From an uncultured Methylomirabilota bacterium (GTDB lineage: Bacteria > Methylomirabilota > Methylomirabilia > Methylomirabilales > 2-02-FULL-66-22), in the NCBI GenBank assembly GCA_963845565.1, contig CAWJSJ010000002.1:960001-1024000 (forward strand): DNA of 64,000 bases, given 5' to 3'. The notes beneath the pieces are model-generated. The model made no database searches. It saw only the letters and a list, made by a program, of their open reading frames with translations, and had not been told where the DNA came from. Position 1 is the stretch's first letter, and each line of letters opens with the position of its first letter. Shown here in pieces: positions 17,987 through 36,209 of the stretch. A program made the translations under genes and the position numbers.

Positions 17987-18240
17987 GAGGAGGCTCCGTC
18001 GGCGGCCGGTCCGGCATCGCCTGAGAAATCAAGGGTTTCCACCGCCGAGCCCGGGGCGGTCGGCGAGTGTGTCTCCACGCGGCACGGCACGAGAGGAGAC
18101 AGGGCGTCTCCCCGATGCCACCCCGGCCTCCTGCGCTTCCCACTCACTGCCCGCTGCCAGCTATCATCTTCCCTTGCCCAAGCGCCCATTCTGCCCAATC
18201 GACACGCTCCGCTGCCGTCTCCGCCTGCACTCCTTTCGCC

Positions 18241-18269
18241 TTGACAGTCGGAGAGGGCTGGCTTAAAAA
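18241..18269 (+). promoter_or_regulatory. Sigma70 promoter of tRNA-Leu
   Basis: TTGACA-N17-TAAAAA, 15 nt upstream of the tRNA. Confidence 0.55.
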
Positions 18270-18284
18270 GGGAACGCACGAAAC

Positions 18285-18371
18285 GCCGGGGTGGTGAAAC
18301 TGGTAGACGCACGGGACTCAAAATCCCGCGGGCTTCGGCTCATGAGGGTTCGATTCCCTCCCCCGGCACCA
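18285..18371 (+). tRNA. tRNA-Leu (CAA)
   Basis: 87 nt, anticodon arm CGGGA-CTCAAAA-TCCCG, long variable arm, GGTTCGATTCC, CCA end. Confidence 0.97.
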
Positions 18372-18421
18372 TTTATCTTTTCGGTAGTTACGCGATTCGC
18401 AGAAGGTGTGGTAACCGGCGT

Positions 18422-18467
18422 CTCAAAATCCCGCGGGCTTCGGCTCATGAGGGTTCGATTCCCTCCC
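18422..18467 (+). repeat. 46-bp exact duplication of tRNA-Leu from the anticodon loop to the start of the acceptor stem (att-like)
   Basis: CTCAAAATCCCGCGGGCTTCGGCTCATGAGGGTTCGATTCCCTCCC is identical to 18317-18362. Confidence 0.9.
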
Positions 18468-18889
18468 GCGATTCAAACTCTCATGATATAGCACCGAGCG
18501 TCTTCCATTGAGCCGCTTGCCTTTGTCTGATCCCTTCATTCCCATCATAAAGCTATCTCGCAGCACCCCGCGAAGGGGGCGTGCTTGGGAGAGCGCCGAT
18601 AACCGGGTGGGAAGGGCGGGATGCGATACACAAAAACGTACGAAACAGACACCCGGTGTTTTGAAGTTTGGGGCACCCAGCGCGTGGCAAGACTGATCGC
18701 AGAGGTAACGCGGCATCGTGGCCATTGCCGTTGATTGGATTGACTGACCGCTCCCCCCCGACCTTTCGGAGCTCCTCCTATATATCGTGGGCTTCCCGTC
18801 GGCCCATCCCCTCGAGTCTCGCCACAGCAATCTCGCGAATCCAGTGATTTCAAAGGGTGCAGATCTCTCTGTTCCCTCGACGCACGGTA

Positions 18890-18905
18890 TGGACCTGTTG
18901 TTGCA
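18890..18905 (+). promoter_or_regulatory. Putative sigma54 promoter
   Basis: TGGACCTGTTGTTGCA, GG-N10-GC. Confidence 0.5.
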
Positions 18906-18974
18906 CCTTCCATCCCATAGAGACGTGGGATTCCGTCCGATGGGCGCTCCGAGCGAAAGAGGTCGACGAGGGCC

Positions 18975-19394
18975 ATGGTCATTTCCACCCTGCGGATTGT
19001 CACGACGCCCAAATCTCGGGTGGAGGTCATCAGGGCCCTCGCGGCCCAGTTGGGTCCGACGCGTGTGCAACCCGGCTGCCTTCGGTGCGATCTCTACCGG
19101 GATGTCGAGGACCAGGGGGCGATCACGCTGGTGGAGGAGTGGAGATCGCAGGCCGAGCTGGACCTGCGCTTACGCTCCGAGGACTACCGTTCTGTTCTCG
19201 CGGCGATCGAGTTGGCGCACGAGCAACCCATCATTCACTTCGACACGGTCACCAGACGTGGGGGTTTGGAGATCGTCGCCTCGGCCAGAGAGTTCTCGCA
19301 TGGCACCTGCAGCCTGCCGGGGCTAGGGTTGGAGTCGGGTCGTGCGGCTCCGGCCGGTCCCGGCCCCGCCTGTTGCCAACTCCCTATCGGGTGA
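18975..19394 (+). CDS. Antibiotic biosynthesis monooxygenase (ABM) family protein
   Basis: QPGCLRCDLYRDVED...LVEEWRS. Confidence 0.8.
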   Translation: MVISTLRIVTTPKSRVEVIRALAAQLGPTRVQPGCLRCDLYRDVEDQGAITLVEEWRSQAELDLRLRSEDYRSVLAAIELAHEQPIIHFDTVTRRGGLEIVASAREFSHGTCSLPGLGLESGRAAPAGPGPACCQLPIG

Positions 19395-19470
19395 CGGTCC
19401 GCTCGGTGGACGCCGCCATGAGAGGCGGAAGGGTTCCAAAGCGGAAACCCAGATTCAGGAGGGCGCGACC

Positions 19471-19821
19471 ATGAAGCCAGAGACTGCAGCGAAGATGAAG
19501 TACGGAGTGTGGGGCCTTATTTGTGGGGCAGTCATCGCTATGATCATCGGCTTTGTGTGGGGGGGCTGGACAACCTCCGGCACGACCCAAACGATGACCA
19601 AAGAGGCGGTCGTGGCGAGCCAGGCGGCGATCTGCGTCGCCCAATTTATGAAGCAACCGAGCCCAGACGAGAAACTGAAAGCCCTCGCGGACGTAAGTAA
19701 CTGGCAGCGAGCCGAATTCATTGAAAAAGGGGGCTGGGATAAGATGCCCGGGCAAGAAAAGGCTAGCTATGCGGTCGCCCGAGCATGTGCCGATGGGCTT
19801 GAGCTTCTGATCAAGAAATGA
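19471..19821 (+). CDS. Conserved hypothetical membrane-anchored protein
   Basis: AGGAGG RBS; IGFVWGGW, ICVAQF and GGWDKMPG, with two Cys likely forming a disulfide. Confidence 0.75.
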   Translation: MKPETAAKMKYGVWGLICGAVIAMIIGFVWGGWTTSGTTQTMTKEAVVASQAAICVAQFMKQPSPDEKLKALADVSNWQRAEFIEKGGWDKMPGQEKASYAVARACADGLELLIKK

Positions 19822-20058
19822 GGACGGTGCGGGTGGGAGGCCCCTTGCCAGGGCCATCCTGGGTTCGCTTGCACGGGACCAGCGGTCCCGCGTTCGAGTG
19901 AGAAACGACGGCGCGTCGCTCGGGCCGTGGCCGGCGGCGCATGGAGAGTGTTATGCGACGCCGGAGCCGTGACAAACGCGGGCAAGGACGTCGCCACATT
20001 TGTCCGCGCCGTGCGAGGAGGATGCGCTCCCTGACTTCATCACTGCAGGACGGCACTC

Positions 20059-20195
20059 ATGCCGACGAATGATTTTCGCTGACGATGGGCATTGCAGAGC
20101 GGAGCCGAAATCGGATCAAGTGCCCGAAGTGCACCTCGCAGAACGTCGAGCCGGTGTTTTCGATGTGTTGTGTCAAGACCGTGCGCAAGGCTCGA
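20059..20195 (+). pseudogene. FmdB-type zinc-ribbon gene remnant with internal deletion
   Basis: MPTNDFR, then in another frame FSLTMGIAERSRNRIKCPKCTSQNVEPVFS; first CxxC missing. Confidence 0.6.
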
Positions 20196-20512
20196 CGGCA
20201 CGAGTGTCGCGAGCGTCGGGGCTTCCTCGGCGCTCGTGGTGTGTTACTACGCAGCGCGGAATAATGGCTACACCGCCCGCCGCGCTGCTCCGTTCGTGGG
20301 GAAGGCCCTCGCTCTTGCACTCGATGCGACGCAAGCGCTCGGCCCTCCCCACGGGCCCCTCCGAGAGGGGCGGGCCGCCGCCCCTCGTCGGACTCTCCCC
20401 GGACTGTGCGCTTCTGTTTGGCGTGTTGCCTATTTTACGCACCGCACAGTAAGAATCGGGATCCCCGCAGCATGCCAGCGCCCTTCATTGTTGGGACGGG
20501 CGATAAAACGGC

Positions 20513-20590
20513 TTACGCCACCCACTGGCCGCTAAACGGCACAACCAGAAGCTCATGTTTCCAAGTCATTATACCGATGGGTTCGGGCCC
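20513..20590 (+). repeat. 78-bp direct repeat A1
   Basis: Ungapped alignment to 26070, 26891, 28435 and 28560 (61/78 to A5 by hand count). Confidence 0.85.
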
Positions 20591-21379
20591 GGTTGTCAAC
20601 CCCGCAGGAAACCCTCGCTACATCGCAACCACCTCTTCGAGCGGAATCATCATCGCACGATGTCTCAAGGGATTCAGGGTGATATCTTTGGAGGACGCTC
20701 ACCCTGGAGAACCCCACCCGTATGTAGCTGCGCCTGAACAAAAATAACAACACCTGACGGGTTCGATTCCCCTCTGGGATGAACCCAGGAATAACGAGAA
20801 CTACCCCCCGCTTCCCCCTATCTAGGGCCGGCGTAAGAATCAACAATCGCCGACGCCCGAACCGAGCGGCCCTCTTCTTTGCGCTCGCGTGTTCAGCCCT
20901 TATCGGCCTCCGGCCTTGACAGTGAGCTGCCCGCGGCGTACGCTTTCCGTACCATCACCTCCGCATCACTCGGTGTCCCGGTTGGGACGCTGGCCCTTCG
21001 TACCCCACCCGGCCACCGCGGACGATTCGGTGTTCTGCTCCTCCGACGACAGACTCGGGTCGCGACAGGGGGAGGTTCCATGGGCTCCGCGGCGCCGAAG
21101 ACGGGACTGGCCCGCACGCTATCCCTTCCGCTTAGCAGGGCCGTGCTCGCCGCTGCGTTCGCGCGGGCGGGGAGGCCGCAGGGGGGGGGCGGCTCCCGCA
21201 ACTCGGCCTCCCGGCCGTATGCCGTTGGGAAAACCTGCCCACCTCCCCGCCGCCCACACCGGAACCTCCCGCTCGCACTTGCCTCATGGCCGAAACAGCC
21301 CTGGCATCCCCCGCCGAGCGCGGGGACGACTCCGCGACACGCGGGAGGGGCAACGCGGTCACCCGCAGGAGGACTGAAG

Positions 21380-22210
21380 ATGAAATGGATCACGTTCTCT
21401 CGGAAAATGGGCACCCAGGGAACCGAAGTGGCCAAGCGAGTGGCCAGCGGCCTCGGGTATCCGCTATACGACACCAAAGCCATCAACCACATGGCCGAGG
21501 AGCTGGGCGTCTTGGGGAGTGTCAGGAAGGTCGATGAAAAGGTACCGCCCCTCTTTCAGCGGCTCTTCTCCCAGCGCCCCATGGTCTACCTCGAACGGCT
21601 CTATTCGGTCATCTATGAACTCGCCAAACAGGGCGATGCGGTCTTCCTGGGCCGGGGCAGTCATGTCCTTTTGCGGGACTTCCCGTGTGCCCTGAACGTT
21701 CGGGTAACCGCCTCCCCGGAGACCTGCCTGCGCACGTTGCTGGACCAAGGGCTCAACCGCGAGGCGGCGGCGCGCGCGATCAAACGCACGGATGATGAAC
21801 GGAGTGCGTTCGTCCAGTTCGCCTTCGGCGTAGATTGGGCGGACCCCGTGCGGTACGACCTCGTCCTTAACATGGATAAACTGAGCGTGAGTCTGGCGGT
21901 CAGCACGGTGCTGCAGATGGTGCGCTCCCCGGAATTCTCCGAGGCCTCCACGGAGGCCCTCCGCGCCTTGGACACGATGGCCCTAACCAGCCGGGCCGAG
22001 GCCGCCCTGATAGAAGCGACCTTTGGCTACGAATTCGCCACCTCCCTGTCCGTGTCCGTGGTGGCGCCGCGAAAGATCCAGGTGCGTGGAACTGTGGGCA
22101 CGGAGGCGCGGAGAGCGGAAGCCGAACAGGTCTTGCGAGCAGTGAAGGGGGTTGATGCGGTCGAGAATCTGATCGAGGTGGCGCAGGTGATCCCGATCCA
22201 AACTGTGTGA
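21380..22210 (+). CDS. Cytidylate kinase-like family protein with C-terminal BON domain
   Basis: ITFSRKMGTQG, GRGS and YDLVLN; C-terminal VKGVDAVENLI. Confidence 0.85.
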   Translation: MKWITFSRKMGTQGTEVAKRVASGLGYPLYDTKAINHMAEELGVLGSVRKVDEKVPPLFQRLFSQRPMVYLERLYSVIYELAKQGDAVFLGRGSHVLLRDFPCALNVRVTASPETCLRTLLDQGLNREAAARAIKRTDDERSAFVQFAFGVDWADPVRYDLVLNMDKLSVSLAVSTVLQMVRSPEFSEASTEALRALDTMALTSRAEAALIEATFGYEFATSLSVSVVAPRKIQVRGTVGTEARRAEAEQVLRAVKGVDAVENLIEVAQVIPIQTV

Positions 22211-22403
22211 TGTCTCTACGGGGAGGTGGATTATGCCTGAGGCTCCCTGTCTCCTCACGCTCCATCCCCAACGCGAGCCTCGTGGGGCGCCCCGCGCGGT
22301 GTCCTCCCTCGCAGAAGGCAGAGTGACGGTGAGGCTGGTGGATGGCGGCCCGCGTGTCCTCCACAAGACCCGCGTCCACCCTCACTGAGCAGGAGGATGT
22401 AAG

Positions 22404-22898
22404 ATGGAACAGAGAACGAAGCGCAAGGCATTCTCGGGGTATCGCCGCATCCTGTGGCCGACAGACCTCTCGCGCCTCGCGAGGGCGGCGCTCCCCCACG
22501 CCCTGCAGTTGGCCGCGGGCAGCAAAGGGGAACTGGTCATCGTCCATGTCTTACCCTTGGTGGCCGCCTACGTGTCTCCCGAGATCGCGGGGCTCCCCTG
22601 GGAGCAGATCGACCGGGCGAATCGGGTGAGCGGAAAGCAGAAGCTCGACCGGATCACGAGTGCGATCAAGGCCGCGCATCCAGAGCTCCAGGTCCACAAC
22701 GTCTTGGCGAAAGGCGTGGTCTCCGAGGAGGTCCTGCGGGTGGCGAGACGCCTCCGCTGCGGCCTGATTGTGCTCGCCACCCACGGGCGCACCGGACTGA
22801 AACACGTGCTGATGGGCAGCGTGGCGGAGAATGTGGTGCGGCGCGCACCCTGTCCGGTGCTGATCGTGCGGCCGCGCGGATACACATCGCGCGGATAA
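22404..22898 (+). CDS. Universal stress protein (UspA family)
   Basis: ILWPTDLS and ATHGRTGLKHVLMGSVAENVVRRAPCPVL. Confidence 0.93.
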   Translation: MEQRTKRKAFSGYRRILWPTDLSRLARAALPHALQLAAGSKGELVIVHVLPLVAAYVSPEIAGLPWEQIDRANRVSGKQKLDRITSAIKAAHPELQVHNVLAKGVVSEEVLRVARRLRCGLIVLATHGRTGLKHVLMGSVAENVVRRAPCPVLIVRPRGYTSRG

Positions 22899-23407
22899 CA
22901 TCAGGCCCCGGCTGAGGGACACCAGCGGGAACTGCGAGCGGTTGGGGGAGATCACCGCACGCCATCGTCTGGGTGCCCTAAGCCAAGGAGCTGCCTGTGG
23001 TCCGTAAGAACTCCATCTGGGGTTGCGGATGTTGGGGCAGTCGGCATAGGTATTCAATCAGTGGACGTTGTCGGGGATTCTCGGGGAGCAGGCCCACGCA
23101 GCGATAATGTCGGGGTGGGACACTCGGTGGGGGCAGGCCAGCCGGCGCACCCAGAGTCGGTCGCGACCTGCAGGCCATGGCCCGCCCGCGCGGACCGACC
23201 AAAATGCCGCATTGACCCACCTCGACTCGTGGGGTACGTTCCTTGGAAATCCGGACCAGTTACAACGCGTTCGCCTCCCGGAAGTCAATCCCCACGGGGC
23301 GTGCCATGATCATGCAACCAGGATACAGCGGGAACCACGAAGCTACCGGGTCGGACTTCCCTGCCAGGGGCGGCATCAACCGCCAGCCAACGAATAAAGC
23401 GCACCAG

Positions 23408-25822
23408 ATGACGTCGCATCAACTTCTCGAGCGGGTTAAGGAACTTGGGTGCTTGTATGCGGTTTCCGAGCTCTTGCAAACCCCCAGTCTATCACTGCCC
23501 GCGATCTGCCAGGGCGTCGTGGATCTCATCCCGGCGGGATGGCAGTACCCGGAGAGTGCTTGCGCTCGCCTGATACTGGAGGAGCAGCATTTCGCGACCG
23601 GGAATTTTCGGGAGACCGTGTGGAAGCTGGATAGCCCCGTGGCAGTGTACGGCAGGCCCGTGGGCGCGTTGGAAGTGTATTACCTCAGCGAGAAGCCGAA
23701 CTGCGGGGAGGGGCCGTTTCTTGCGGAAGAGCGGCGCCTGCTGAACGCATTGACTGGACGATTAGGGAAGAGCCTCGAGCGCCAGCAAGCCGAGGCGGCG
23801 CTCCGCCAGAGCGAACTCCTCTTCCACACCTTAGCGCAGGTGTCTCCCGTCGGTATCTTCCGCACCGACGCCCACGGCGACTGTGTGTACGTCAACGAGC
23901 GATGGTGCGAGATCGCTGGAATCTCCGCCGATGCCGCAGTCGGGCAAGGCTGGACGCGAGCCATTCATCCCGAGGATCGGGACCAGGTCTTTACCGAATG
24001 GTATCGAAGCGCGGAGGAGAATCGGCCGTTCAAGATGGAGTACCGGCTGCAACGGCCCGACGGTTTCTCCACCTGGGTCGTGGGCCAAGCCTTGCGAGAG
24101 CCCAGCGGCGCCGATCGCATGGGCGGGTACGTCGGAACGATTACGGACATCACCGACCGCAAACACACGGAGGAAGCGTTGCGGAGGAGCCAGGACAATC
24201 TAACGCGAGCGCAGGAGGTGGCGCACATCGGGAGCTGGCACCTCGACATTCCCGGGAACACCCTCACCTGCTCCGAAGAAGCCTATCGCATCTTCGGCCT
24301 CCCGATCGGAACCCCCCTGACCTATGAACGCTTTCTGGAACTCGTCCATCCGAATGACCGGCGATCCGTCGATGACGCGTGGCGAGCGGCCCTGGCCGGC
24401 GGACGGTCGAGCCTGGAGTACCGCATCGTCGTTGCCGGGGAAGTCAGATGGATCCGCGGAATTGCCGAAATCGAACGCGACGCAGGCGGTGCCCCGTTGC
24501 GTGGCGTCGGCACCAGCCAGGACATCACCCAACACAAGGCCGTGGATGACGCGTTGCGGACTCACATCGCGCAACTCGATGCCCTCCGGGCCGTCAGCGC
24601 CGAAATCATCCGGGAGCTCCACCCTCCAACGTTGCTGGACCTCATCGTGCGCAAGTCCGTGGAATTGGTGGGGGGTGCGGGAGGGACAATCTATCTCTGG
24701 GATGAGTTCGACCAACTTCTCACTCCACACGTCTGGGTTGGGCACAGCGGAACCTGGGTGCGCGACGGAAAGGTCCGAATCGGCGAGGGGCTCGTGGGCC
24801 TCGTCGCGGAGCGGCGCGAGGGATTGATCGTTAACGACTACCGGACCTGGCCACGCGCGCGGGCCTTCATCCTGCAGCAGACCCACGTCACGGCTGCAGT
24901 CGCCGAGCCGCTCCTCTGTCGCAACCGCCTCCTAGGGGTGGTTGCCATTGACGATCAGGGCGGTGGGCGACGATTTACGGAACAAGACCGCATGCGGCTC
25001 CGCCTCTTCGCCGCCCAAGCGGCCATCACCCTAGACAATGCGCAACTCTACGCGCAGGTGCGAGGGCACGCGGAGGAGTTGGAGCGGAAAGTCGAGGAAA
25101 GGACCCGGGAGCTTCAAACCGCCAACGCGGATCTGGAAGCGTTCTCCTACTCCGTCTCGCACGACCTCCGTGCCCCGCTGATCAGTATTGACGGCTTCAG
25201 CACCCGCCTACTCAAGAAATATCAGACCGTGTTGGGTGCGAAAGGGCAGGAGTATCTCCAACATGTGCGAGTCGCGGCGCACCACATGACGGAGCGCATC
25301 GACGCCCTGTTGGCCCTGGCGCGGGTTGGCCACCAAACACTCACCCTGGAGCCCGTCGATCTCAGTGCCCTGGCCCGGATTGTCACCGCCGAACTGCGCC
25401 AGCGCGAACCCGACCGTGCCGCCGAGATTCACATTCAGGAGGACCTCGTCGTCCAGGGTGACGCGCCGCTGCTCCGGGCGCTCTTGGAGAACCTCCTCGG
25501 CAATGCGTGGAAGTTCACGGCACGCCGGCGTCCAGCCCGTATCGACGTCGGACGATTTTCCGGAGAGGGCAACGAAGCGGTCTATTTCGTGCGTGACAAC
25601 GGCGCGGGATTTGACATGGCGTGCACGGACAAACTCTTCGAGGCGTTCGAGCGTCTCCATGCCGCCGACGATTTTCCCGGGACCGGGATCGGTCTCGCCA
25701 CGGTGGAGCGGATTATCCGGCGACATAGGGGCCGCGTGTGGGCGGAAGGCGTGGTAGACGAGGGGGCCACGTTCTTCTTCACCCTAGGCTTCCCGACCCT
25801 CGAGCGCGACCCGAACGCATGA
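23408..25822 (+). CDS. Cytoplasmic PAS-PAS-GAF histidine kinase
   Basis: ERVKELGCLY, two PAS/PAC, GAF, FSYSVSHDLRAP, NAWKFT and GTGIGLA; start uncertain. Confidence 0.92.
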   Translation: MTSHQLLERVKELGCLYAVSELLQTPSLSLPAICQGVVDLIPAGWQYPESACARLILEEQHFATGNFRETVWKLDSPVAVYGRPVGALEVYYLSEKPNCGEGPFLAEERRLLNALTGRLGKSLERQQAEAALRQSELLFHTLAQVSPVGIFRTDAHGDCVYVNERWCEIAGISADAAVGQGWTRAIHPEDRDQVFTEWYRSAEENRPFKMEYRLQRPDGFSTWVVGQALREPSGADRMGGYVGTITDITDRKHTEEALRRSQDNLTRAQEVAHIGSWHLDIPGNTLTCSEEAYRIFGLPIGTPLTYERFLELVHPNDRRSVDDAWRAALAGGRSSLEYRIVVAGEVRWIRGIAEIERDAGGAPLRGVGTSQDITQHKAVDDALRTHIAQLDALRAVSAEIIRELHPPTLLDLIVRKSVELVGGAGGTIYLWDEFDQLLTPHVWVGHSGTWVRDGKVRIGEGLVGLVAERREGLIVNDYRTWPRARAFILQQTHVTAAVAEPLLCRNRLLGVVAIDDQGGGRRFTEQDRMRLRLFAAQAAITLDNAQLYAQVRGHAEELERKVEERTRELQTANADLEAFSYSVSHDLRAPLISIDGFSTRLLKKYQTVLGAKGQEYLQHVRVAAHHMTERIDALLALARVGHQTLTLEPVDLSALARIVTAELRQREPDRAAEIHIQEDLVVQGDAPLLRALLENLLGNAWKFTARRRPARIDVGRFSGEGNEAVYFVRDNGAGFDMACTDKLFEAFERLHAADDFPGTGIGLATVERIIRRHRGRVWAEGVVDEGATFFFTLGFPTLERDPNA

Positions 25823-26069
25823 CGGAGAGGTGACGTCAGGAATCCCCCATGGTCACTCTGGGTCTCAAACTGGCCCCCGGGCAACCGAACAACTTCTGCA
25901 CCAACTCTGAGCGCAGGGCAGGCGCTTATCGGGCGTTACTTGGATGGCTGCGTGCCCACAAAGCGGCTCGTGTACGTTTCGTTCCCCACGGAGTGGCTTT
26001 TGCTCACGTGGCGGCCCGCTCCTCAGGCGCCCCCCCCTTATCACCAGGAAACGGCGCAGTCCGCGAACC

Positions 26070-26147
26070 TCACGTCACCCACTCCCCGCTAAACGGCACC
26101 ACCAAAAGCGCGTGTATCCACGTAATTACACCGTATGTTCCCGGTCC
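26070..26147 (+). repeat. 78-bp direct repeat A2
   Basis: 65/78 identical to A5 by hand count. Confidence 0.88.
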
Positions 26148-26399
26148 GCCGGTCGAACTCTCCTGGACGTCCCGACAAGTCACTATACGGCGTCACCAGA
26201 ACATCGAGGTTTCCATCAGTTACACCTGTCTGGTCGGGTCCACCAGGGACGCTTGACAGCAGCGCCGGTCCGCCAATACTCTATGATAGTCCAGGGAGGC
26301 GCCGCGGTGCCGCAGGACGTGGGTCCACGGCTGGGCGATCTTCAAGTGCGAGGACCTCACAGCAGCGAGATGCTGCCAACAGACAGGAGAGCGAGAACC

Positions 26400-26708
26400 A
26401 TGGCGAATGTGCTTACAGTGGTGGCGAAGATCCGGGCGGCGAAGGGAAAGGGAGACGCGCTGGCGGCCCTCCTCAAGGAGCAGGTCGCGGCGGTGAGGAA
26501 GGCCGAGCCGGGCTGCTTGGTCTACCGCCCGCACCGGTCCACCAAGGATCCCGATCTCTTCATCTTCTACGAGCAGTATAAGGACGACGCCGCCTTCGAG
26601 GTTCATCGCTCGGCCCCACACCTCGCCGCCTACCGGGAGCGCCGGGAGAAGGAAGGCCTTACCGAAGGTGCAGCCGAGGTCGAGATCTATCGCTCGATCA
26701 CCGATTAA
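26400..26708 (+). CDS. ABM family / putative quinol monooxygenase
   Basis: EPGCLVYRPHRS...FIFYEQY...H; AGGAG RBS. Confidence 0.88.
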   Translation: MANVLTVVAKIRAAKGKGDALAALLKEQVAAVRKAEPGCLVYRPHRSTKDPDLFIFYEQYKDDAAFEVHRSAPHLAAYRERREKEGLTEGAAEVEIYRSITD

Positions 26709-26890
26709 GCCGTGACGGGAACTGCGTCGTTTGACGCGTATGGCGCCGAGGATTTCAAGTGGCCCATGCCACGATCGGCCGCGGAGGTGGCCGGCGCGTC
26801 GTCGCCTGCGGGCGGGGAGCTTTATACACGCCTCGGGTTGACGGTGCAACTCCCCTGAAGGACGATGCCACAATCGGCCCGCCGACGGGC

Positions 26891-26968
26891 TCACGCCGCC
26901 CATTCCCGGTTGAACTGCACGACGAGCAGTTCGTGTTCCCAGGGAATTATACCCAGGGGTGCGGGCCG
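26891..26968 (+). repeat. 78-bp direct repeat A3 (more diverged)
   Basis: TCACGCCGCCCATTCCC...GAACTGCAC...TCGTGTTCCCAGGGAATTATACC...CGGGCC aligns without gaps. Confidence 0.8.
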
Positions 26969-27285
26969 AGAAAGGGAGCCGTCCTCGGTTTTGATTCCCC
27001 CGGCCTCGCATTCCTGCGAGTCGGGGTAATTCGAGTTAGCGATGGCGCTTTCATTTCTGCACGGAGTCTCCTTTGACTTGTCTCCCGATTCGCAGTAGCC
27101 TTTCTGGCGGGATATCGCTCCTCAAGGATGGACAATGTTTATAGGTTACCCGATGAATGGTGCCCTCCTGGCCTAATGAGCCGGAGGGCATTCGTATTCG
27201 GGCGAGCAGGAAGACGAATCTCACAAGGCCAGTACCCATCAAGCGCCAGTTGAGCCCGTAATTCGTTGGCCGCAGGAGGACGCCC

Positions 27286-28386
27286 ATGTGGAAGAAAATT
27301 CTGTTCCCCGGAAAGTATATTCAGGGGGCCGGCGCCTTGGCCGAATTGCCGTCCCTGATCAAGCTGTTTGGCAGCCAGGGGCTGATCCTGGCGTCGCCCA
27401 CGGCGGCTAAGGTCATTGCCCCGCAGAGCGGGGTAGATCTCAACGCGCACGGCTTGCCCGTCGCACGCTTCGCCGGAGAGTGTTGTGAAAAAGAACTCGC
27501 CAGAGTGGCAGCGATGCTCCGAGAGAAACGCAGCGATGTACTGGTGGGCATGGGCGGGGGCAAAACCATCGACACCGCGAAAATCGCCGCGGACCGCGCG
27601 AAGATACCGGTCGTGGTCGTTCCCACCATCGCCTCGACAGATGCGCCCTGTAGTGGGTGTGCCGTGGTGTATTCCGAGCAGGGCGTGTTTGAATCGGTCC
27701 AATACCAGACAGCAAATCCGGCGGCCGTGCTGGTCGATATGGCCATTATCGCCCAGGCGCCCGTCCGGTTTCTCGTGGCGGGGATGGGCGATGCGCTGGC
27801 CACATGGTTCGAAGCCAAGTCCTGTAGTGACACGCAATCCGCCAACGAGTGCGGTGGGCTCAGCACGCTGACGGGACTCACGCTCGCGAAACTGTGTTAT
27901 GACACCTTGCTGCGATATGGCGTGACGGCCAAGATCGCTGCCCAGCAGCACATCATTACCCCGGCACTGGAACACATTGTGGAGGCGAATATCCTCCTGA
28001 GTGGGGTCGGGTTTGAAAGCGGGGGCTTAGCAAGCGCCCATTCCATTCACAACGGTCTGACGGCGCTGAACGAGACGCACGCGTATTACCACGGGGAAAA
28101 GGTGGCGTTTGGCGTGCTGGCCGGCCTGCAACTCACTGATGCCCTGCCGGAAGAATCGGCCCGCGTGTTCTCCTTCTGTGAGGCGGTTGGCCTGCCCACC
28201 ACCTTGGCCGACATTGGGCATGGCAATATCGACCACCCCCGACTGATGCTCGTCGCGGAAAAGGCCTGCGCGCCCGGCGAATACATTCATCACGAAGCGG
28301 GCGAGATCACGCCGGCCAAAGTGCTTCAGGCGATGCTGGCGGCAAACGCCATCGGAGAACACCGGAAAAGACAACGAGCTGCATAG
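27286..28386 (+). CDS. gldA: Glycerol dehydrogenase
   Basis: PGKYIQG, GGGKTIDTAK, PTIASTDAPCS, AHSIHNG and YHGEKVAFG. Confidence 0.92.
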   Translation: MWKKILFPGKYIQGAGALAELPSLIKLFGSQGLILASPTAAKVIAPQSGVDLNAHGLPVARFAGECCEKELARVAAMLREKRSDVLVGMGGGKTIDTAKIAADRAKIPVVVVPTIASTDAPCSGCAVVYSEQGVFESVQYQTANPAAVLVDMAIIAQAPVRFLVAGMGDALATWFEAKSCSDTQSANECGGLSTLTGLTLAKLCYDTLLRYGVTAKIAAQQHIITPALEHIVEANILLSGVGFESGGLASAHSIHNGLTALNETHAYYHGEKVAFGVLAGLQLTDALPEESARVFSFCEAVGLPTTLADIGHGNIDHPRLMLVAEKACAPGEYIHHEAGEITPAKVLQAMLAANAIGEHRKRQRAA

Positions 28387-28434
28387 CCTCGTTTCATACG
28401 TCACAGTTTGTAGACTGCCGCCAACGAGTTACGC

Positions 28435-28520
28435 CGCTAGCGCGCATTCTCCATTAAACGGCACGATCAAATGTGGTTGATTCTAAGTAATTATGCCTAT
28501 CGGTCCGGGCCCTCGGCACC
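28435..28520 (+). repeat. Direct repeat A4 followed by a degenerate tRNA-Leu 3' end (CCCTCGGCACC)
   Basis: TAAACGGCAC...AAGTAATTATGCC...CCGGGCCC, then 10/11 match to tRNA 18360-18370. Confidence 0.8.
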
Positions 28521-28559
28521 CCTTCCCTTACCATCATGAGATCCGTCACGCGGCGGACC

Positions 28560-28648
28560 TCACGCCGCCCACTCCCCGTGGAACGGCACCACCAGAAGCT
28601 CGTGTTTCCAGGTGATTACACCGTGTGTTCCGGGCCCCCGGCACCATT
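28560..28648 (+). repeat. Direct repeat A5 running into the exact tRNA-Leu 3' end
   Basis: 28635-28648 CCCCCGGCACCATT equals 18360-18373 (14/14). Confidence 0.88.
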
Positions 28649-29022
28649 CCTCATATCCTTATACCGCCTTAGTCACGCCGCAACGATCCCTTCCAACCGG
28701 ATCGTCATGTTCACATGGCTGATCGGATCGAGAGTGATATCTTTGGAGAAAATCCCCCCGAGGACACCTGCAATACGTACGTGTGCTTCCCGATAACGCG
28801 TGATCATCGGTCCGGTTGATCTTTTCGACGATCCGCATCAAGCTGCCCCCGCGGATATCCGCTTCCCCTCGTCGAAAGGGTCCTATATCATGATGCCCGT
28901 CAGTCACGGCCCCCGGGCAGAATCCGGCATGATTCGCCTCATGCAGGGCTCGCTGAACTCGTCCTCGGCTTATTCCACCTCAAACGCCGGCCGGGCACCG
29001 GCCCGGCCCGAGGGAGGGACGC

Positions 29023-30195
29023 ATGCTTGCGCTACGCCTGACGTCCGAGAACACGCTGCCGTCCGAGGGGCTCGCCGGAACCTTTCTGGCCCGGGTCTGG
29101 GTACCGGCGGACGGGCCGACGCCCGCCCTCGTGACGCCCGATGGGGTCTTCTCGCTGTTCCCCGCTGCGCCGACGCTCGCCCAGCTCTTGGCCGCCGAGA
29201 ATCCGGTCGGTATCGCACACGAGCAGGCGGGTCCGCGCATCGGCAGTGTCCCAGAGGTGCTGGAGAATACGGCGCACGATCGCCGGGATCCCGCGCGCCC
29301 CTGGTTCCTCGCGCCCGCCGATCTCCAGGCCCTCAAAGCGTGCGGGGTGACCTTTGTCAAGAGCATGCTCGAGCGGGTGATCGAGAACCTCGCGGCCGGC
29401 GATCCGGATGCGGCGGCCGCGACGCGGGCCACGATCGAAGCGGAAGCGGGCAGCCTCTCCCGGGTCACCCCCGGGTCTCCCGAAGCCGCCCGGGTCAAGC
29501 AGGCGTTGGTGGCCCGCGGCCTGTGGTCGCCCTTCATGGAAGTGGGGATCGGCCCAGACGCCGAGATCTTCACGAAAGCCCAGCCGATGTCCGCCGTGGG
29601 CACGGGCGACGAGGTGGGGGTGTTGCCCAGCTCCGCCTGGAACAACCCGGAGCCCGAAGTCGTCCTGGTGGTGTCGCCGGCCGGCCGCATCGTCGGGGCG
29701 ACCATCGGAAACGATGTGAACATCCGAGATATGGTGGGCCGGAGTATCCTGCTGGCGTGCCGTGCCAAGGACAACCGTGCCTCCTGCGCTGTCGGTCCGT
29801 TCATCCGCCTGTTTGATGCAACCTTCACCTTGGACGACGTCCGGCGCACGGTCCTCAACCTGCGGATCGAGGGGGAGGACGGATTCGCCCTGTCCGAGCG
29901 CCATTGTATGGGCGACATCAGCCGGGACGTGACCGACCTCGTTGCGCAGACCATCGGTCCGCACAACCAGTATCCGGATGGGCTGTTGCTCTTTACCGGA
30001 ACCAGTGTCGCGCCGGCCGCGGACCGAGAGGGCCCCGGCAGGGGGTTCACGCACCACGTGGGAGACCTGGTGACGATCAGCACCCCGAAGTTGGGCGCGC
30101 TCATCAACCGGGTCAACCACACCGATCGGATTTCCCCCTGGACATTCGGCATTGGACAACTGATTGAGAACCTCCGAGGGCGCCCCCGTCGGTGA
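29023..30195 (+). CDS. Fumarylacetoacetate hydrolase family protein (2-keto-3-deoxy sugar-acid dehydratase-like)
   Basis: KACGVTF, EIFTKAQP, WNNPEPE, GNDVN and KDN. Confidence 0.9.
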   Translation: MLALRLTSENTLPSEGLAGTFLARVWVPADGPTPALVTPDGVFSLFPAAPTLAQLLAAENPVGIAHEQAGPRIGSVPEVLENTAHDRRDPARPWFLAPADLQALKACGVTFVKSMLERVIENLAAGDPDAAAATRATIEAEAGSLSRVTPGSPEAARVKQALVARGLWSPFMEVGIGPDAEIFTKAQPMSAVGTGDEVGVLPSSAWNNPEPEVVLVVSPAGRIVGATIGNDVNIRDMVGRSILLACRAKDNRASCAVGPFIRLFDATFTLDDVRRTVLNLRIEGEDGFALSERHCMGDISRDVTDLVAQTIGPHNQYPDGLLLFTGTSVAPAADREGPGRGFTHHVGDLVTISTPKLGALINRVNHTDRISPWTFGIGQLIENLRGRPRR

Positions 30196-30203
30196 GAGCG
30201 GCA

Positions 30204-30464
30204 GTCATGGGGGACGTTCCAGTTCTTGTCGTCTTGCGATGCCTCTGGGGCCGCATGCTCGGCCACGCGTTGTGATGCGCGACGTCGTCTACCTCGTAGG
30301 GGGGCGCGGTCTGCCACGCCCTGCCAGGCCGTGTGGAGGAGGGGAGGGGCAGCCGCGGCCAATGCGTGGCGACGTGCCTCGCGCGAGGGAGGCGGGTCGG
30401 TGGGGAAACGGGGTTAGTGGAAAAGAGCCCGCAAGACGACGTAAACCGGAACGTCCCCCATTAC
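30204..30464. mobile_element. ~260-bp inverted-repeat element B1 (MITE/REPIN-like)
   Basis: Ends GGGGGACGTTCCAGTTCTTGTCGTCTTGCG / CGCAAGACGACGTAAACCGGAACGTCCCCC; near-identical copy at 34791. Confidence 0.8.
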
Positions 30465-30541
30465 AGGACTTGACCGAGGGTCCCGCTCGGCGATAGTCTC
30501 CCGCCCGATTGACCCCATATCTACGCTTTCGCGGTCATGGC

Positions 30542-30557
30542 TGGCCCGTGCCTTGCT
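30542..30557 (+). promoter_or_regulatory. Putative sigma54 promoter
   Basis: TGGCCCGTGCCTTGCT, GG-N10-GC. Confidence 0.6.
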
Positions 30558-30689
30558 CGCCACAGGAGCGCGCCCGTCGGCTCGGCGTGCCACCGTGGGG
30601 CGCAGACGTGGGACGGTTCGTTGGTTTCGGAATCCATGCAGGAGTGCGAAGCGAGTGCGACCGTCTGGCGTAATTGCGGCCGGTCCCCC

Positions 30690-33501
30690 ATGGAGGAGGA
30701 AAAACCTGTGCGCCTTCTCGTAACGTTCTGCCTGGTGGTCACACTCCTGCCTCTCGGTATCGCGCTGGCGGGAGCCCCCACGCCCATGGGCGCCCCGCAG
30801 GTGCCTCAGCCGGGGCCGGGCGCGCCGAACACCGGCGCATGGCCGCGGGCCTTCACCCTCGCCCCCGGGGGCCAGGCGGTCTTTGGGATCTCGGTCGGCG
30901 CGCCGGGGCCGGTCCAGGTCGGGATTAATTGGAGCGGTCCCCCGCTCGCGTTTGCGCTGCGGGACCCGAGTGGCCGCATCCAGAAACAGGCGACGGACCA
31001 ACGGCCACCGTCGGTCCGCCTGGACCATGCGGCCCACGCCGCCGGCGTCTGGTCGCTGGTCATTTCGAACCCCGCGCCGGTGCAGGCGCCGGCCGCCCCA
31101 GCCGGGCAGTCCTCAGTGCCCGCGACAGCCCAGGGGCAGGTGGGCGCAAACCTCCCGTACGCGAACCCGGTCTCGCCCCCAACGGCCGCCGCAACTGGGC
31201 TGCAGGCCGCCCAGCCGTCGCAGGTCGCGCCGGCAGGGCCAGCCCTGTCCCCCTGTGAGATGGCCGGCAACTGCCCGCCGCAGGGAAGCATCGCCATCAC
31301 CGCGCCCCAAGCCGGGACGGTCTGGTCCACGGGGTCTTACCACGTGATCCAGTGGGCCTTCAGCGGCACGCGCAGCACCACCGCGGACGTCACGCTGTGG
31401 CAGAACAACCAGCAGGTCGCTACCGTCTGGACCGGCTCCGCCACGGGCAAGGCCGCCTACATCGTCCCCTTCGGGGCACCGGCGGGCACGTATGAGCTCC
31501 GCGTGACCCTCCAGACCGATCGCCGGGTGGAGGCCCGGCAGCCCGTCGCCATCGTACCGACGGCCGTCACCGTCACCGCTCCGGCCGCGGCCCTTGTCAC
31601 GGGCGCGCCCCACACCATCACCTGGTCCTACACCGGGAGCATCACGACGATGAAGCTCTCCGTCGTGGACCCCTACGGAACGGTGGTGCAGTCCTTCCCG
31701 AACGTTCCGGCGGGAAGCAACGGCAAGGGGAGCTGGCCCTGGACGGCGCCCGTGCTGCCTGCGGGGAAAGCCTCGGCAGAGTACCGCTTCCAGGTCAGCG
31801 GGACCTTCCACAAGGACGTGACGAACAACAACGCCATGACCGAAGTCGTGCTGGGCACCTCCAATCCCTTCACGGTCCGGCTGCCCAAGATCGAGGTGGG
31901 AACGCGTTTCCTCGTCGATGCCGGCGTGGCGGAATGCTCTGCGGGGAAACAGTACCAGTTCTCCTGGACCAGCGAGCTCAACGGAAAACCGGTGAAGGTC
32001 GAGCTGTACAAAGGATCCACGCTGCTTCAGACGATCGCGGCGAGCCAGACCTCCGGCGCCAGCAACACGATCACATGGACAGTGCCGAGCATTCCCGAAA
32101 CGCTCGCCCGGAACTATCTGCGCATTCGCGTAACGAGCCTCGACTTCCCCGCCGCGAAGGACGAGACATCCTTCTACTGCCAGAAGCCCTGGATCGCCAT
32201 CAAGACGCCCGACCCCCAGCAAAACCTCAATATGAACCAGACGTATCAGATCGCGTGGGAGTATCGCGGCGATCCCGGCCGGCACGTCCGGGTCGAGGTG
32301 CTGTCCGCCAAGGCAGGCGGCTACGACATGAAGGCGTTCGAGACGCCGGCGCAAAGCGCGCCGATGCAGGCGAGCGGTGCCAAGTGGGGAGAGGGGCAAG
32401 TCTCCTGGACCTTGACCAACAGGGGCCCGCACCAAAACTTGTACATCCAGCTGCAGAGCGTGGAAGACAAGACCGTCGGGGATCGCAAGCAGTACTACAT
32501 CGCAGTACGCGGGCTCGGGCGGCACGAGTTTCGGTGGCGTGACCGTCGGATCCGGTTCCAGCGGCAGCGGGACGAGCACCACGAGCGGCACCTCGAGCAG
32601 CGGCGCGACGAGCGGCAGCGGGACGAGCTCGGGCGCCGGCAGCGCGTTTCCGAGCAACTGCAGCGGCGGGCTGCAAAGCGGGAGGCTCGAGCTCACGGGC
32701 GCGAGGACGCTGAAGTATAATCCGAGCGACTCCGCCACCTTCCGGTCGTCATCGTTCGTTACCCTGGATGCGAACTGCTACGCCCTCTTGGGGCTGCTCG
32801 CCAGTGACCAGCAGCTGAAGTATCGAGCGGCCAATTCCGCGTCGGCCTTGTTCCGTCTGGGCTCGCCCGCCTACTTCAGCAACGGCTACGTGCAGCAGGG
32901 CCAGCTCTACGGTGACCAGGTCGTGGAATATGGGCCGTCGCGCACCGTCAACCTCTACGGCAGCTCGGTGCCGAAGTTCGCCGGAGGATACCTGCAGACC
33001 GGCCGGGTCCTGGGAGATCAGGCGCTGGACTACCGGCCGGGTCGCTCCATCTACGTGCGCAGCGCCTCGGGGGCGGCCTTCGCCAACGGCTATGTCAAGA
33101 CCGGCCAGCTGGCGAGCGAGCACTCCCTGGAATACCGGGCGGGCCAGAGCACGTCGTTCAGAGCCTCTTCACTCGTCACCTTTCGCCCGGATGGCTACGT
33201 GCAGTCCGGGCAGCTAGACTCGGAGCCGACCCTCGAGTACAAACCCGGGGGATCGACCCGCTTCAAGTTCCGGGTGGAATTCCGATCCGGCGGGTACGTG
33301 AAGTCCGGATTCGTGGCGTATGAGACAACGCTGGAGACCGCGCAGGGGAGCCAGGCCGTCCCGGCGTACGCCTACGTCACCTTCGACGACGCCGGCCGCA
33401 TGGTGTCGTTCAACCCGCCGACTTTCTCCGCCTGCTACACATGCGATCCCGAGCAGGACCACGACTGCTCGCACAGCGGGGGGCTTCCGCCCTGCAAATA
33501 A
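30690..33501 (+). CDS. Large secreted protein: tandem Ig-like modules, Gly/Ser linker, ~34-aa repeats and Cys-rich tail; frameshift near 32500
   Basis: Signal peptide; repeated ITAP..G...I.W modules; ORF 30537 continues in ORF 32539 (SQYAGSGGTSFGGVTVG). Confidence 0.75.
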
Positions 33502-33697
33502 GGTGTGGGCGGTGAAGGCGCCTCGCCGAAGCGTACAGCCGGAGCGCGGCCGAGCGAGGTCCGCTCGGGAGCGTTCGCGGATCATTCCGGCGTGAAGATG
33601 GCCGATTTGACCTCTGGTGGCTGACTCCTCCGCTCTTCAAGAGCGAGATGCGAGAGACGCGCAGTCGCGGGCCATCAGTCGGGAAGGGAGAAGCTTC

Positions 33698-34753
33698 ATG
33701 CAACAAAACGACTCTCAGCTGGTGATCCGGGATGTCCCGATTTTCCAGTGGGTATTTGCATTTTTTTTCGCGGGCGTCGGCACTTTGGTCATCAATCAGG
33801 GAGGTCCGCCGGTTTTTGGGGGCATCTTTGCGGCTGTTGGTGTGGGTTTCCTGCTTTTCAGCGGCGTCCTGACCATCACCGCGGACCGGATTACACGAAC
33901 GTTGAAACTCGATTACCGCTCTGCATTGCGCCACACATTGAAGCAGGTGCATTTTGACGAGATCGCCGGCATCAATGTAGAACGCATCGTTAGCGGCGGC
34001 AAAAGAGGTTTTACGTACCGGCTGACTTTACTGCGGAAGGACGGACAGGTAGTCCCATTCCGGTCGTCCAGTTCAAGCGGCTGGAAGGGGAAGGAACGGT
34101 CTGCAGGCCAACTGCGCGAATTTCTCGGGATTCAGGATTCCAACCGCATCCCCGCCGGGATCCTGCCCGCGGAGCTGTCGCAGGCAGCCGAAATCCACGA
34201 GACGAACGGCGTACACTGGCGAATTCAGCCGATGTATACCGCCAGTTCTTCAGCCCCCACCGGAGTCCGCTGGCATTCGCCGGACTTCAAGACGCCGGGC
34301 ATTTTCCTGTTTGTGGCGCAGAAAGCCGAAGGGCAGCCGTCACGAGGTTTTCTGGCGTCTCTGGGTAGCATGTTTATCCGGCAGGCCCTCTCGCTCCACG
34401 GCTTTTCGCCGGAGGATACGCCCGCCCTGGAACAGGCCGTGACCTTGGCTCCGCTTGAACCGGCGCTCGAGCGCCACTTCATGGCGTACACCAATTCTCC
34501 ATCCTCGGCTCATCAGTTGCTGAATTCGAGGGTCACAACACATCTTACGGATTGGGCTGCGCGCTATCCGTTGAAACAGTTACAAGGAGGATCGGGTTCC
34601 GGTCAGCTAATGACCCTTTTCGGGCCGAATGGCGTCTACCTGGCCACGCTGAACCTGTTGCAGCGCAATCAGGCCCACGAACTAGTCTCACTGGGAGTGG
34701 AACTGGTCAAAAGTCAGAGCGCCGGTTTGGGGCAATTCTCTTCCGCCCATTAG
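33698..34753 (+). CDS. Hypothetical membrane protein (2 N-terminal TM), lower GC
   Basis: MQQNDSQLVIRD...; GGGAG RBS; codon usage unlike its neighbours. Confidence 0.75.
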   Translation: MQQNDSQLVIRDVPIFQWVFAFFFAGVGTLVINQGGPPVFGGIFAAVGVGFLLFSGVLTITADRITRTLKLDYRSALRHTLKQVHFDEIAGINVERIVSGGKRGFTYRLTLLRKDGQVVPFRSSSSSGWKGKERSAGQLREFLGIQDSNRIPAGILPAELSQAAEIHETNGVHWRIQPMYTASSSAPTGVRWHSPDFKTPGIFLFVAQKAEGQPSRGFLASLGSMFIRQALSLHGFSPEDTPALEQAVTLAPLEPALERHFMAYTNSPSSAHQLLNSRVTTHLTDWAARYPLKQLQGGSGSGQLMTLFGPNGVYLATLNLLQRNQAHELVSLGVELVKSQSAGLGQFSSAH

Positions 34754-34790
34754 CGCATTCTCTTTCGTGGTTGATCTGCGCAGAGCAAAA

Positions 34791-35038
34791 GTTCCAGTCT
34801 TTGTCGTCTTGCGATCGCCTCGGGGGCCGCATGCTCGGCCACGCGTTGTGATGCGCGACGTCGTCTGCCTCGTAGGGGGGGCGGTCTGCCACGCCCCGCC
34901 AGGCCGTGTGGAGGAGGGGAGGGGCAGCCGCGGCAAACGCGTGGCGACGTGCCTCGCGCGAGGGAGGCGGGTCGGTGCGGAAACGGGGTTAGTGGAAAAG
35001 AGTCGCAAGACGACGTAAACCGGAACGTCCCCAATTAC
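34791..35038. mobile_element. Element B2 (left end truncated), same orientation as B1
   Basis: GTTCCAGTCTTTGTCGTCTTGCG...CGCAAGACGACGTAAACCGGAACGTCCCC. Confidence 0.8.
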
Positions 35039-35445
35039 TTGAAGAGGTCGTCGAAGGCCTGCCGACCGGACCTGGGGGCGGCGGCCTGCGTTTCGCGCTC
35101 CACGGTCGTGCGAGGCTTCCAGAGCGTGCAGTCGTTGCGAGCATCCTTCACGGCAATCCTCGCCGCAATCGGCTGCAGGCACTGCAGACGGGCGCCCGGA
35201 TCGAAGAACGCGCACTGCGTGCACGCGTGGAGCTCCGCGCCGCACTTGCCGCACCGCGCGGTGCTCACGTCCGCGTTGGACAGCTCGCCTGCGCAGCGCG
35301 CGCAGCGGATGACCTCCCGCCACTTCATCAGGTTCAGGGCGCGCGGCCCCTCGGGTTGGTCGGCGGGAGGACGAGGACCGGGCGCCCGCGGCGTTTTTCG
35401 GTCGTCGTTCTGGTACCCGCGCTGTCGGTACTTGCGGTCGGACAT
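35035..35445 (-). CDS. Conserved Cys-rich zinc-finger protein
   Basis: MSDRKYRQRGYQ; CARC, CGKC, CTQC..C..C; ends AFDDLFK. Confidence 0.8.
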   Translation of the reverse strand: MSDRKYRQRGYQNDDRKTPRAPGPRPPADQPEGPRALNLMKWREVIRCARCAGELSNADVSTARCGKCGAELHACTQCAFFDPGARLQCLQPIAARIAVKDARNDCTLWKPRTTVERETQAAAPRSGRQAFDDLFK

Positions 35446-36209
35446 CGCCCAGTCTCGCCCTCGGTCACGCGCTCCGCTCCCGCCGGCGCCCGCCCCGCGG
35501 GCGGACGTCATCGGCGAAGCAGGGGATGGGATATTTACCGGATGTTATCCTGATGGCGCTGGCGACGCCAGTCCTGAATGGGTGCCGGTCCCCCAGCACC
35601 ATCCGTGAGATGCTCTCGACTGACCAGACATCGTCGCTGCGCGCGTTCGAGTCCGTGCCGCTTCCCCGGTAGGGGCGAAGGTGGGCACTGGCTCGCAACA
35701 TGTCCAGTGGGATGCGGCGTGCGAGGCTGGCGTCGGTGACGTGGGGGACAGATCTCAGCCCGCCGCCCGACTAGATGCAGAAAAGAGGTACCGGACACCT
35801 TTTGGCTCGTAAGTGATGGATCTTGCGAGAGGCTGATTTCACTTTTGGGCCGCTACACAGGGGCCGGAGCTCCACGCAGGAGCACCCGGAGTGCGAATCA
35901 CACGGGCTGCCCCGACGGCGGCGACGGCTTCAGGTTTCACCCGCCTGATGGGCCGACCGCCAAGAATGGGATTCGCCCATTCAGCAAATCAACGGGTTAG
36001 CTCTCGTTGTGTGGCGAATCGCCACCGTGTTAGAGGCGCGGACCAGTCGGGCCGCCGACGAGGGGTCCGGAAAGGAATCGCCAATTCTGCATGACGCAGA
36101 GTGTGGCGCTAGAAGGCGAGCGGGGCGGTCATCCGGGGCGGGCGTACCGTCGTCCACCGTCCCCCGCGTCTGGCGACCGTTTGACGCTCTCCGAGACGGG
36201 CGGACTGCA

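Follow-up and report, generated by a model that had tools for sequence, protein, structure and literature searches.

Direct repeats behind a tRNA-Leu(CAA) gene of a Methylomirabilota bacterium read as severed tails of a large serine recombinase

We analysed a 64,000-nucleotide stretch of the genome of an uncultured Methylomirabilota bacterium (hereafter the window), in which five direct repeats, A1 to A5, separate blocks of genes behind a tRNA-Leu(CAA) gene. With a probability of about 0.8, the repeats are the attP-side arms of integrative elements that encode a large serine recombinase (LSR) targeting this tRNA, with the attachment (att) site inside the 3' coding end of the LSR gene, the units having accreted at the site and being mobilisable in cis. 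The sequences show the gene as ...xCRG plus a tail of about 25 residues on one side, as ...xCRG plus tRNA antisense at the tRNA, and as the tail alone at the far end. Since LSR genes end over tRNA-Leu or in its antisense, the LSR gene contains the att site, and its tail is severed on integration and stranded at attR. The array is a fossil with ordinary metabolic and signalling cargo. New here are the tRNA-Leu target, a conserved, exchangeable tail usually ending in -AA, and cargo units headed by attB-type sites.

Repeats and their reading frame

An initial annotation, made from the sequence letters, had described five same-orientation, 78-bp, gapless and non-coding repeats. All five were found where it had placed them, and pairwise identity ranged from 47 to 65 of 78 positions, with 65 for A2/A5 and 61 for A1/A5 as it had counted by hand. 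Gapless alignment failed for A4, which is 84 bp long with a 6-bp insertion and has its stop at 28429–28431. The tRNA-Leu(CAA) was likewise located at 18285–18371; A5 runs into an exact copy of the final 10 nt of the tRNA and A4 into a near copy of its 3' end, and the similarity common to all copies ends, as had been noted, at the predicted crossover. A 49-nt copy of the tRNA 3' half at 18422–18470 and a weak sixth repeat at ~26164–26241 (both from the repeat finder), as well as a degenerate core near 26020, had been overlooked.

A profile of the five repeats matched seven places in the genome at E ≤ 1.6e-15; no other match reached an E-value below 4, which leaves a gap of 15 orders of magnitude. 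The two extra copies (contig positions C2:678648 and C5:370098) each have the tRNA 3'-end motif after them. Association with a tRNA, which had been assumed for the repeat, was seen for the five copies of the array and not for these two, which lie tens to hundreds of kilobases from any tRNA. An inverted tRNA-Leu-like arm was also noted at C2:678353, ~200 bp from the orphan tail at C2:678648. Within the genus, 6 of 20 genomes carry tails; elsewhere in the phylum, 1 of 230 genomes gave a weak match. The repeats had no Rfam match at E ≤ 1, and on 18000–36000 Rfam returned just the tRNA and one sub-threshold match. They were absent among the inverted repeats listed by the repeat finder, where terminal inverted repeats of a miniature inverted-repeat transposable element (MITE) were looked for.

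The description as non-coding had to be abandoned. On the minus strand, each copy is the end of an open reading frame (ORF) and comprises the last 25 codons and the stop of a gene, the stop being the first three bases of the copy. In A5, this frame reads WCRG-PGTHGVITWKHELLVVPFHGEWAA and then a stop; its WCRG part corresponds to the tRNA 3' end read in antisense. The conserved stop was present in 5/5 copies; A4 carries, besides its insertion, an internal stop, and the A2 tail ends in -VT. Across eight intact tails (four from the window and four from other loci), the ratio of nonsynonymous to synonymous polymorphism (pN/pS) was 0.50 in the coding frame, with no internal stops, compared with 1.03 and 1.18 in the other two same-strand frames, with 13 and 3 internal stops.

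The 32-aa tail had no Pfam or NCBIfam match. Its profile led to two proteins, P0014, which has a Zn-ribbon recombinase domain (PF13408), and P0006, and the tail forms the last residues of both. By its sequence, the peptide is the C-terminus of LSRs. According to the initial annotation, a match to a protein fragment would have spoken against its reading of the repeats; such a match was found, yet the fragment is the integrase's own, which strengthens the att reading.

The parent recombinase and its attachment sites

P0014 led to 12 full-length LSRs (P0082–P0093), and the domains of the cognate enzyme, Resolvase, Recombinase and Zn-ribbon, were found in P0087. CRG followed by the tRNA-Leu(CAA) antisense is the end of 6 of the 12, and the others end in different tails. 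Among 28 metagenome loci, the LSR gene end overlaps an intact tRNA-Leu(CAA) on the opposite strand in two (L097 and L103). Gene and tail are fused in contigs L098 and L099, and in L102 a tRNA half with an LSR remnant is followed by 4.7 kb of cargo and, oriented as expected, a tail. One member of the LSR cluster is attributed by its name to an NC10 bacterium. In the source genome (5.36 Mb in 6 contigs, 98.7% complete), no match to Resolvase, Recombinase or the LSR family was found, which bears out the earlier view of the cargo as non-autonomous and lacking its recombinase. Viral contigs yielded no confirmed relative of the tail or of P0014, phage records distant LSRs alone (22–28% among the matches listed), and genomes of named species three distant LSRs at 37%. 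No paper on this LSR family was found in the open-licence literature, subscription papers and supplements lying outside the search; the excerpts of PMC12884075 contain nothing on it.

In relatives, a small serine recombinase (Resolvase plus part of Recombinase) begins just past the tail stop (L021:740–1657, L029, L030 and L043), and from this position integration would part it from the LSR. Tandem tails were seen in L098/L099 and L033, where an LSR, a core and a tail of one type are followed by a second core with a different type of tail; they could offer alternative C-termini. In L106 and L111, more distant LSRs show this design at a different tRNA: their 3' ends adjoin tRNA-Arg(CCT), which lies on the opposite strand.

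Junctions were aligned on the CC dinucleotide, and arms were scored with 200,000 random positions as the background. In A1–A5, the final 20 nt mirrored the profile of 11 LSR-side arms (p 1.5e-5 to 1.3e-4), and the outer 12 nt alone gave p 7e-4 to 1e-2. The shared similarity stops at the repeat end because these last 20 nt mirror the LSR-side arms around the crossover. The right arms at 18465, A1 and A2 mirrored the tRNA arm at 15, 12 and 12 of 20 positions (p ≤ 7e-4), so that the cargo units start in attB-type half-sites (B'-type arms). The site at 18465 is the best B/B' dyad in the genome, and the same junction was present in 3 of 20 genus genomes. The att arms are short and dyad-symmetric around a 2-bp crossover. 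A B-like site at ~20772 was borderline (10/20 and 9/20) and is kept as a possibility alone. These results support the initial annotation in linking the repeats, as recombination junctions, to tRNA-Leu(CAA). The tyrosine integrase it had proposed gives way to a serine recombinase, as the LSR fusions and tRNA-antisense ends indicate that the repeats are tails and attP-side arms of the latter. The features of the array are given below with the predicted crossover centres, whose successive spacings are 105, 2123, 5432, 125, 94, 727, 1544 and 125.

18285–18371, plus strand: tRNA-Leu(CAA), primary target; predicted crossover CC 18360–18361; the antisense reads WCRGRESNPHEPKPAGF and a stop, the integrated-form LSR end
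18372–18421, no strand: 50-bp spacer, probably the collapsed remnant of an element with its crossover at the anticodon loop
18422–18486, plus strand: attB-like B-O-B' site heading the array; tRNA 3'-half copy (B arm), CC 18465–18466, arm mirroring B (15/20)
18975–19394, plus strand: cargo, ABM-family protein
19471–19821, plus strand: cargo, small ORF without family match (candidate membrane protein in the initial annotation)
20245–20452, no strand: dispersed 208-bp MITE-like repeat within unit 1, unrelated to the att system
20513–20609, minus strand: A1, putative severed LSR tail (P arm), then B'-type arm (12/20); centre 20588–20589
21380–25822, plus strand: cargo, cytidylate-kinase-like plus BON (21380–22210), Usp (22404–22898), PAS/GAF histidine kinase (23306–25822)
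26013–26069, no strand: degenerate core (~26020) and spacer of a 125-bp core-spacer-tail module, also at A4–A5 and beside the LSR in L098/L099
26070–26166, minus strand: A2, putative severed LSR tail, then B'-type arm (12/20); centre 26145–26146
26164–26241, minus strand: A2b, degenerate sixth tail closing a 94-bp B'-to-P mini-unit (p 1.2e-3)
26400–26708, plus strand: cargo, ABM-family protein
26891–26987, minus strand: A3, putative severed LSR tail, then weak B'-type arm (10/20); centre 26966–26967
27286–28386, plus strand: cargo, glycerol dehydrogenase
28429–28512, minus strand: A4, putative severed LSR tail ending in -ALAA and a stop, one internal stop; centre 28510–28511
28560–28656, minus strand: A5, putative severed LSR tail, then displaced tRNA 3' end (28637–28646), outermost attR; centre 28635–28636
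29023–30195, plus strand: FAH-family gene past A5, bounded by no further tail, its membership of the array not established

Pfam and NCBIfam supported the earlier cargo assignments (both ABM proteins, cytidylate-kinase-like plus BON, Usp, PAS/GAF histidine kinase, glycerol dehydrogenase and FAH) except for an FmdB remnant, for which Pfam gave no match in three frames; the plus-strand orientation claimed for the cargo was seen in 8/8 ORFs checked. tRNA fragments beginning at position 32–34, evidence for the origin proposed for the 50-bp spacer, recur in the relatives G009, G014 and G016 and in L102. Non-coding stretches at 20624–20693 and 28679–28748, shortly past A1 and past A5, are 70% alike.

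Accretion of the array and competing explanations

In the proposed mechanism, the LSR (Resolvase, Recombinase and Zn-ribbon) would cut at CC at the T-stem/acceptor-stem junction, within its own 3' coding end. Elements would have entered the tRNA-Leu site repeatedly, and their LSR modules would have been lost, or looped out by attL × internal attR, leaving an attB-type B-O-B' site like 18422–18486 and stranded cargo units with a B'-type arm at the start and a P tail at the end. An autonomous element could then dock at the regenerated attB and excise via a more distal attR, carrying units in cis; the array would be inert in this genome until such an LSR element arrives. Because the loop-out route needs attP × attB and attL × attR alone, it agrees with the pairing rule reported for phiC31 integrase (PMC3132441).

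Comparable arrangements were present elsewhere. G009 shares the head junction (78% over 174 bp) and the terminal tail (89% over 90 bp) and has one inner tail, with unrelated cargo between them; its tRNA, followed by an LSR fragment, sits on another contig. The 125-bp module matched L098/L099 at 82% over 145 bp, and the 94-bp B'-tail module recurred in database proteins and in one weak contig joint. Among 74 tail-bearing proteins (regex classes, 35 unassigned), both LSR body types and B'-type arms were each joined to both tail subtypes, and the unit-1 arm at 18467 was joined to a different tail in P0061 (E 2e-9). Sequencing runs gave 12 listed contig joints, from 4 of 20 runs; stretches that these runs left uncovered were not taken into account. 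A3 was bridged by contigs from runs X12 and X16, and in an X16 contig the match begins, behind 28 foreign letters, exactly at 18465, the predicted centre. The joints 18485–20529 (X6, shorter side 21 letters), 18371–28675 (X6, depth 2) and 28634–20805 (X16) were rejected; they are single contigs of 88% likeness and may stem from other organisms. In addition, seven dispersed 20-bp tRNA-Leu arm copies were noted in the relatives G014 and G020 (L198, L199, L203–L206 and L033), most of them following a conserved non-tRNA leader of ~100 bp, which reads as a further LSR tail type whose first residues are tRNA-like; the source genome has no arm copy with this leader.

The same junctions could be explained by an integron-like array driven by an LSR, in which each B'-cargo-P unit excises on its own as a P-O-B'-joined circle and is inserted into the head site (B-O-B') by an LSR in trans, regenerating attB every time. 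The B'-type arms at unit starts, the intact-looking attB at the head in this genome and in 3 of 20 relatives, the recurrence of the conserved 94- and 125-bp att-to-att mini-units in other samples and the X16 match starting at 18465 fit this explanation, and frequent chromosomal P-O-P' junctions suggest relaxed site pairing. However, a P half must pair with a B half in phiC31 integrase (PMC3132441), and attR × attB breaks this rule. Single-unit movement, for which the initial annotation had suggested the 821-bp A2–A3 circle as an example, was not seen either: no joint among the 12 listed linked two repeat centres or amounted to a centre-to-centre deletion. In relatives, a tail lay within ~1.5 kb at 0 of 17 cargo-homolog loci, and no unit was found at another array position. 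We consider this explanation unlikely. Plain decay has somewhat more to commend it and is possible, if doubtful. Here, tandem or nested LSR islands were eroded by ordinary deletion, the B' arms descend from secondary attB sites that were hit a single time, of which they form the right halves, and mobilisation is no longer possible. The degenerating tails (the internal stop of A4, the -VT end of A2, and A2b), the copies at non-tRNA sites, the MITE and pseudogene debris in unit 1 and the lack of an LSR in the genome are all consistent with it. It is harder to reconcile with B' arms that keep the 20-bp tRNA-arm mirror and that, in other genomes, have been joined anew to different left arms, and with 3 of 5 tails that, with intact frame, still end in the conserved stop frame.

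It is very improbable that the repeats serve a tyrosine integrase as non-coding arm sites or, as attC-like sites, the integron integrase (IntI) encoded 658 kb away. An integron integrase above the family cut-off lies at C2:1646488–1647432, and the 49-nt copy from the anticodon loop resembles a tyrosine-integrase attR. The reading of the repeats as LSR coding tails that mirror LSR arms largely refutes this explanation; no shared hairpin was found in 10 folds (z +1.5 to −2.0), and the array had no attC box pair by a strict pattern that also found none in 22 kb around IntI and is thus without a positive control. The four Pfam tyrosine-integrase matches in the genome all lie far from the array.

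Several points weigh against the accretion of LSR elements that we favour. The search for an intact element carrying full LSR, attL and attR on a single contig recovered none, and the recombination is deduced from sequence. Two of the seven copies in this genome and most copies in relatives lie away from an intact tRNA; such a tRNA was found in 0 of 13 regions around copies in four relatives, and the adjacency of the G009 contigs C29 and C39 is not established. The B' scores of A3 and A5 were weak (10 and 9 of 20; p 0.012 and 0.037), and the right arm of A4 fits neither class well. One antisense frame of the tails likewise had a low pN/pS (0.57), so that the frame is fixed by the stop and the LSR fusions rather than by this ratio. 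Finally, chromosomal LSR-tail junctions are common (23 of 74 matches), L098/L099 being decayed and linear; the family may therefore not obey the strict P-with-B pairing assumed by the loop-out route, and relaxed pairing would leave room for single-unit movement.

Known systems and a possible degron

As judged from its description, one of the closest known systems, the stack of Dehalococcoides ssrA islands behind the tmRNA gene (DsiB/DsiA, PMC3146451), works like the array here; the others are SCC composites and CIME accretion, both treated below. The target here is the T-stem/acceptor junction of tRNA-Leu(CAA), whereas that of DsiB is the tmRNA T-loop; the missing 3' fragment is recognised here in a conserved tail of 25 residues; the small recombinase is found downstream of the tail instead of upstream of the LSR; and no LSR is left in the source genome. 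The array is not an ssrA island proper, its target not being ssrA and the six-gene integration module being absent from it. The tail would supply the missing 3' gene fragment postulated in PMC3146451 for att-overlapping serine integrases. Exact attB and attP arms and a crossover can also be given for a tRNA-Leu-targeting LSR family; according to a 2015 island database, no serine recombinase was known to have a tRNA gene as its target (PMC4383910). Accretion and cis-mobilisation of cis-mobilisable elements (CIMEs, PMC5704250) likewise involve decayed elements that keep their att sites and stack with incoming elements at one site. They are described for tandems of integrative and conjugative or integrative and mobilisable elements (ICE/IME, PMC5704250), whereas the units here span 0.1–5.5 kb and are bounded by LSR half-sites. 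The units match the CIME definition in having no integration or transfer genes and att sites at both ends, the left ends being B'-type and not canonical attL; no conjugation genes were seen in the array, although no search aimed at them was made. The re-assortment of arms and tails among database proteins bears indirectly on mobilisation in cis with an adjacent element.

The staphylococcal cassette chromosome (SCC; CcrAB/CcrC) is likewise a stack of cassettes built by LSRs at a gene 3' end, and it forms composite stacks. Here the target is different, and att lies inside the recombinase gene. The best NCBIfam match of P0087 was CcrB, at 77 bits against a cut-off of 900, so that it does not belong to the Ccr family; a CcrB link is given in PMC3146451. 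Mx8 and SSV integrases extend across attP (PMC4383910), and integration similarly swaps or removes their C-terminus, but these are tyrosine integrases. Like the array, integrons line up small cargo units one after another, all oriented alike, behind a primary site. They are defined by IntI, attI and attC. No IntI is adjacent here, the sole one lying 658 kb away, there is no attC hairpin with a box pair (box scan without a positive control), and the junctions are double-stranded LSR half-sites. Mycobacteriophage BPs uses a tyrosine integrase. In its integration-dependent immunity, integration removes a degradation tag, but the split, tagged gene is the repressor, whereas here it would be the serine integrase itself (PMC3694055).

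We speculate that the terminal -AA of the tail might be a ClpXP degron, the circular form giving an unstable integrase and the integrated form a stable one. ClpX recognises terminal AA, clpX is present in the host genome, the host tmRNA tag ends in ALAA, and the tag loss in BPs offers a precedent (PMC3694055). An AA ending was found in 45 of 53 tail-terminated database proteins, compared with 108 of 6332 long frames of the source genome (1.7%), and the tail was predicted to be unstructured (pLDDT 40–48). On the other side, the AA count is biased, since the search profile had been derived from tails ending in AA; these LSRs also carry other tail types, which have no AA end; and the fold prediction was based on 30 sequences. 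A wider proposal would be a serine-recombinase gene-capture platform, in which B'/P units regenerate attB at each arrival and move singly, and the reactions swap the integrase C-terminus so that the -AA tail acts as an integration-dependent ClpXP degron; we hold this to be improbable. Two ideas become directly testable, an integrase half-life switched by the enzyme's own reaction and cargo units that regenerate attB.

Two other repeats were noted. The 208-bp element at 20245–20452 has imperfect terminal inverted repeats and at least five further near-full copies in the genome (80–96%), with many in the genus. A ~260-bp element with 35-bp terminal inverted repeats is duplicated (95%) at 30204–30464 and 34791–35038, the sole two copies in the genome, where it flanks a 4.3-kb block.

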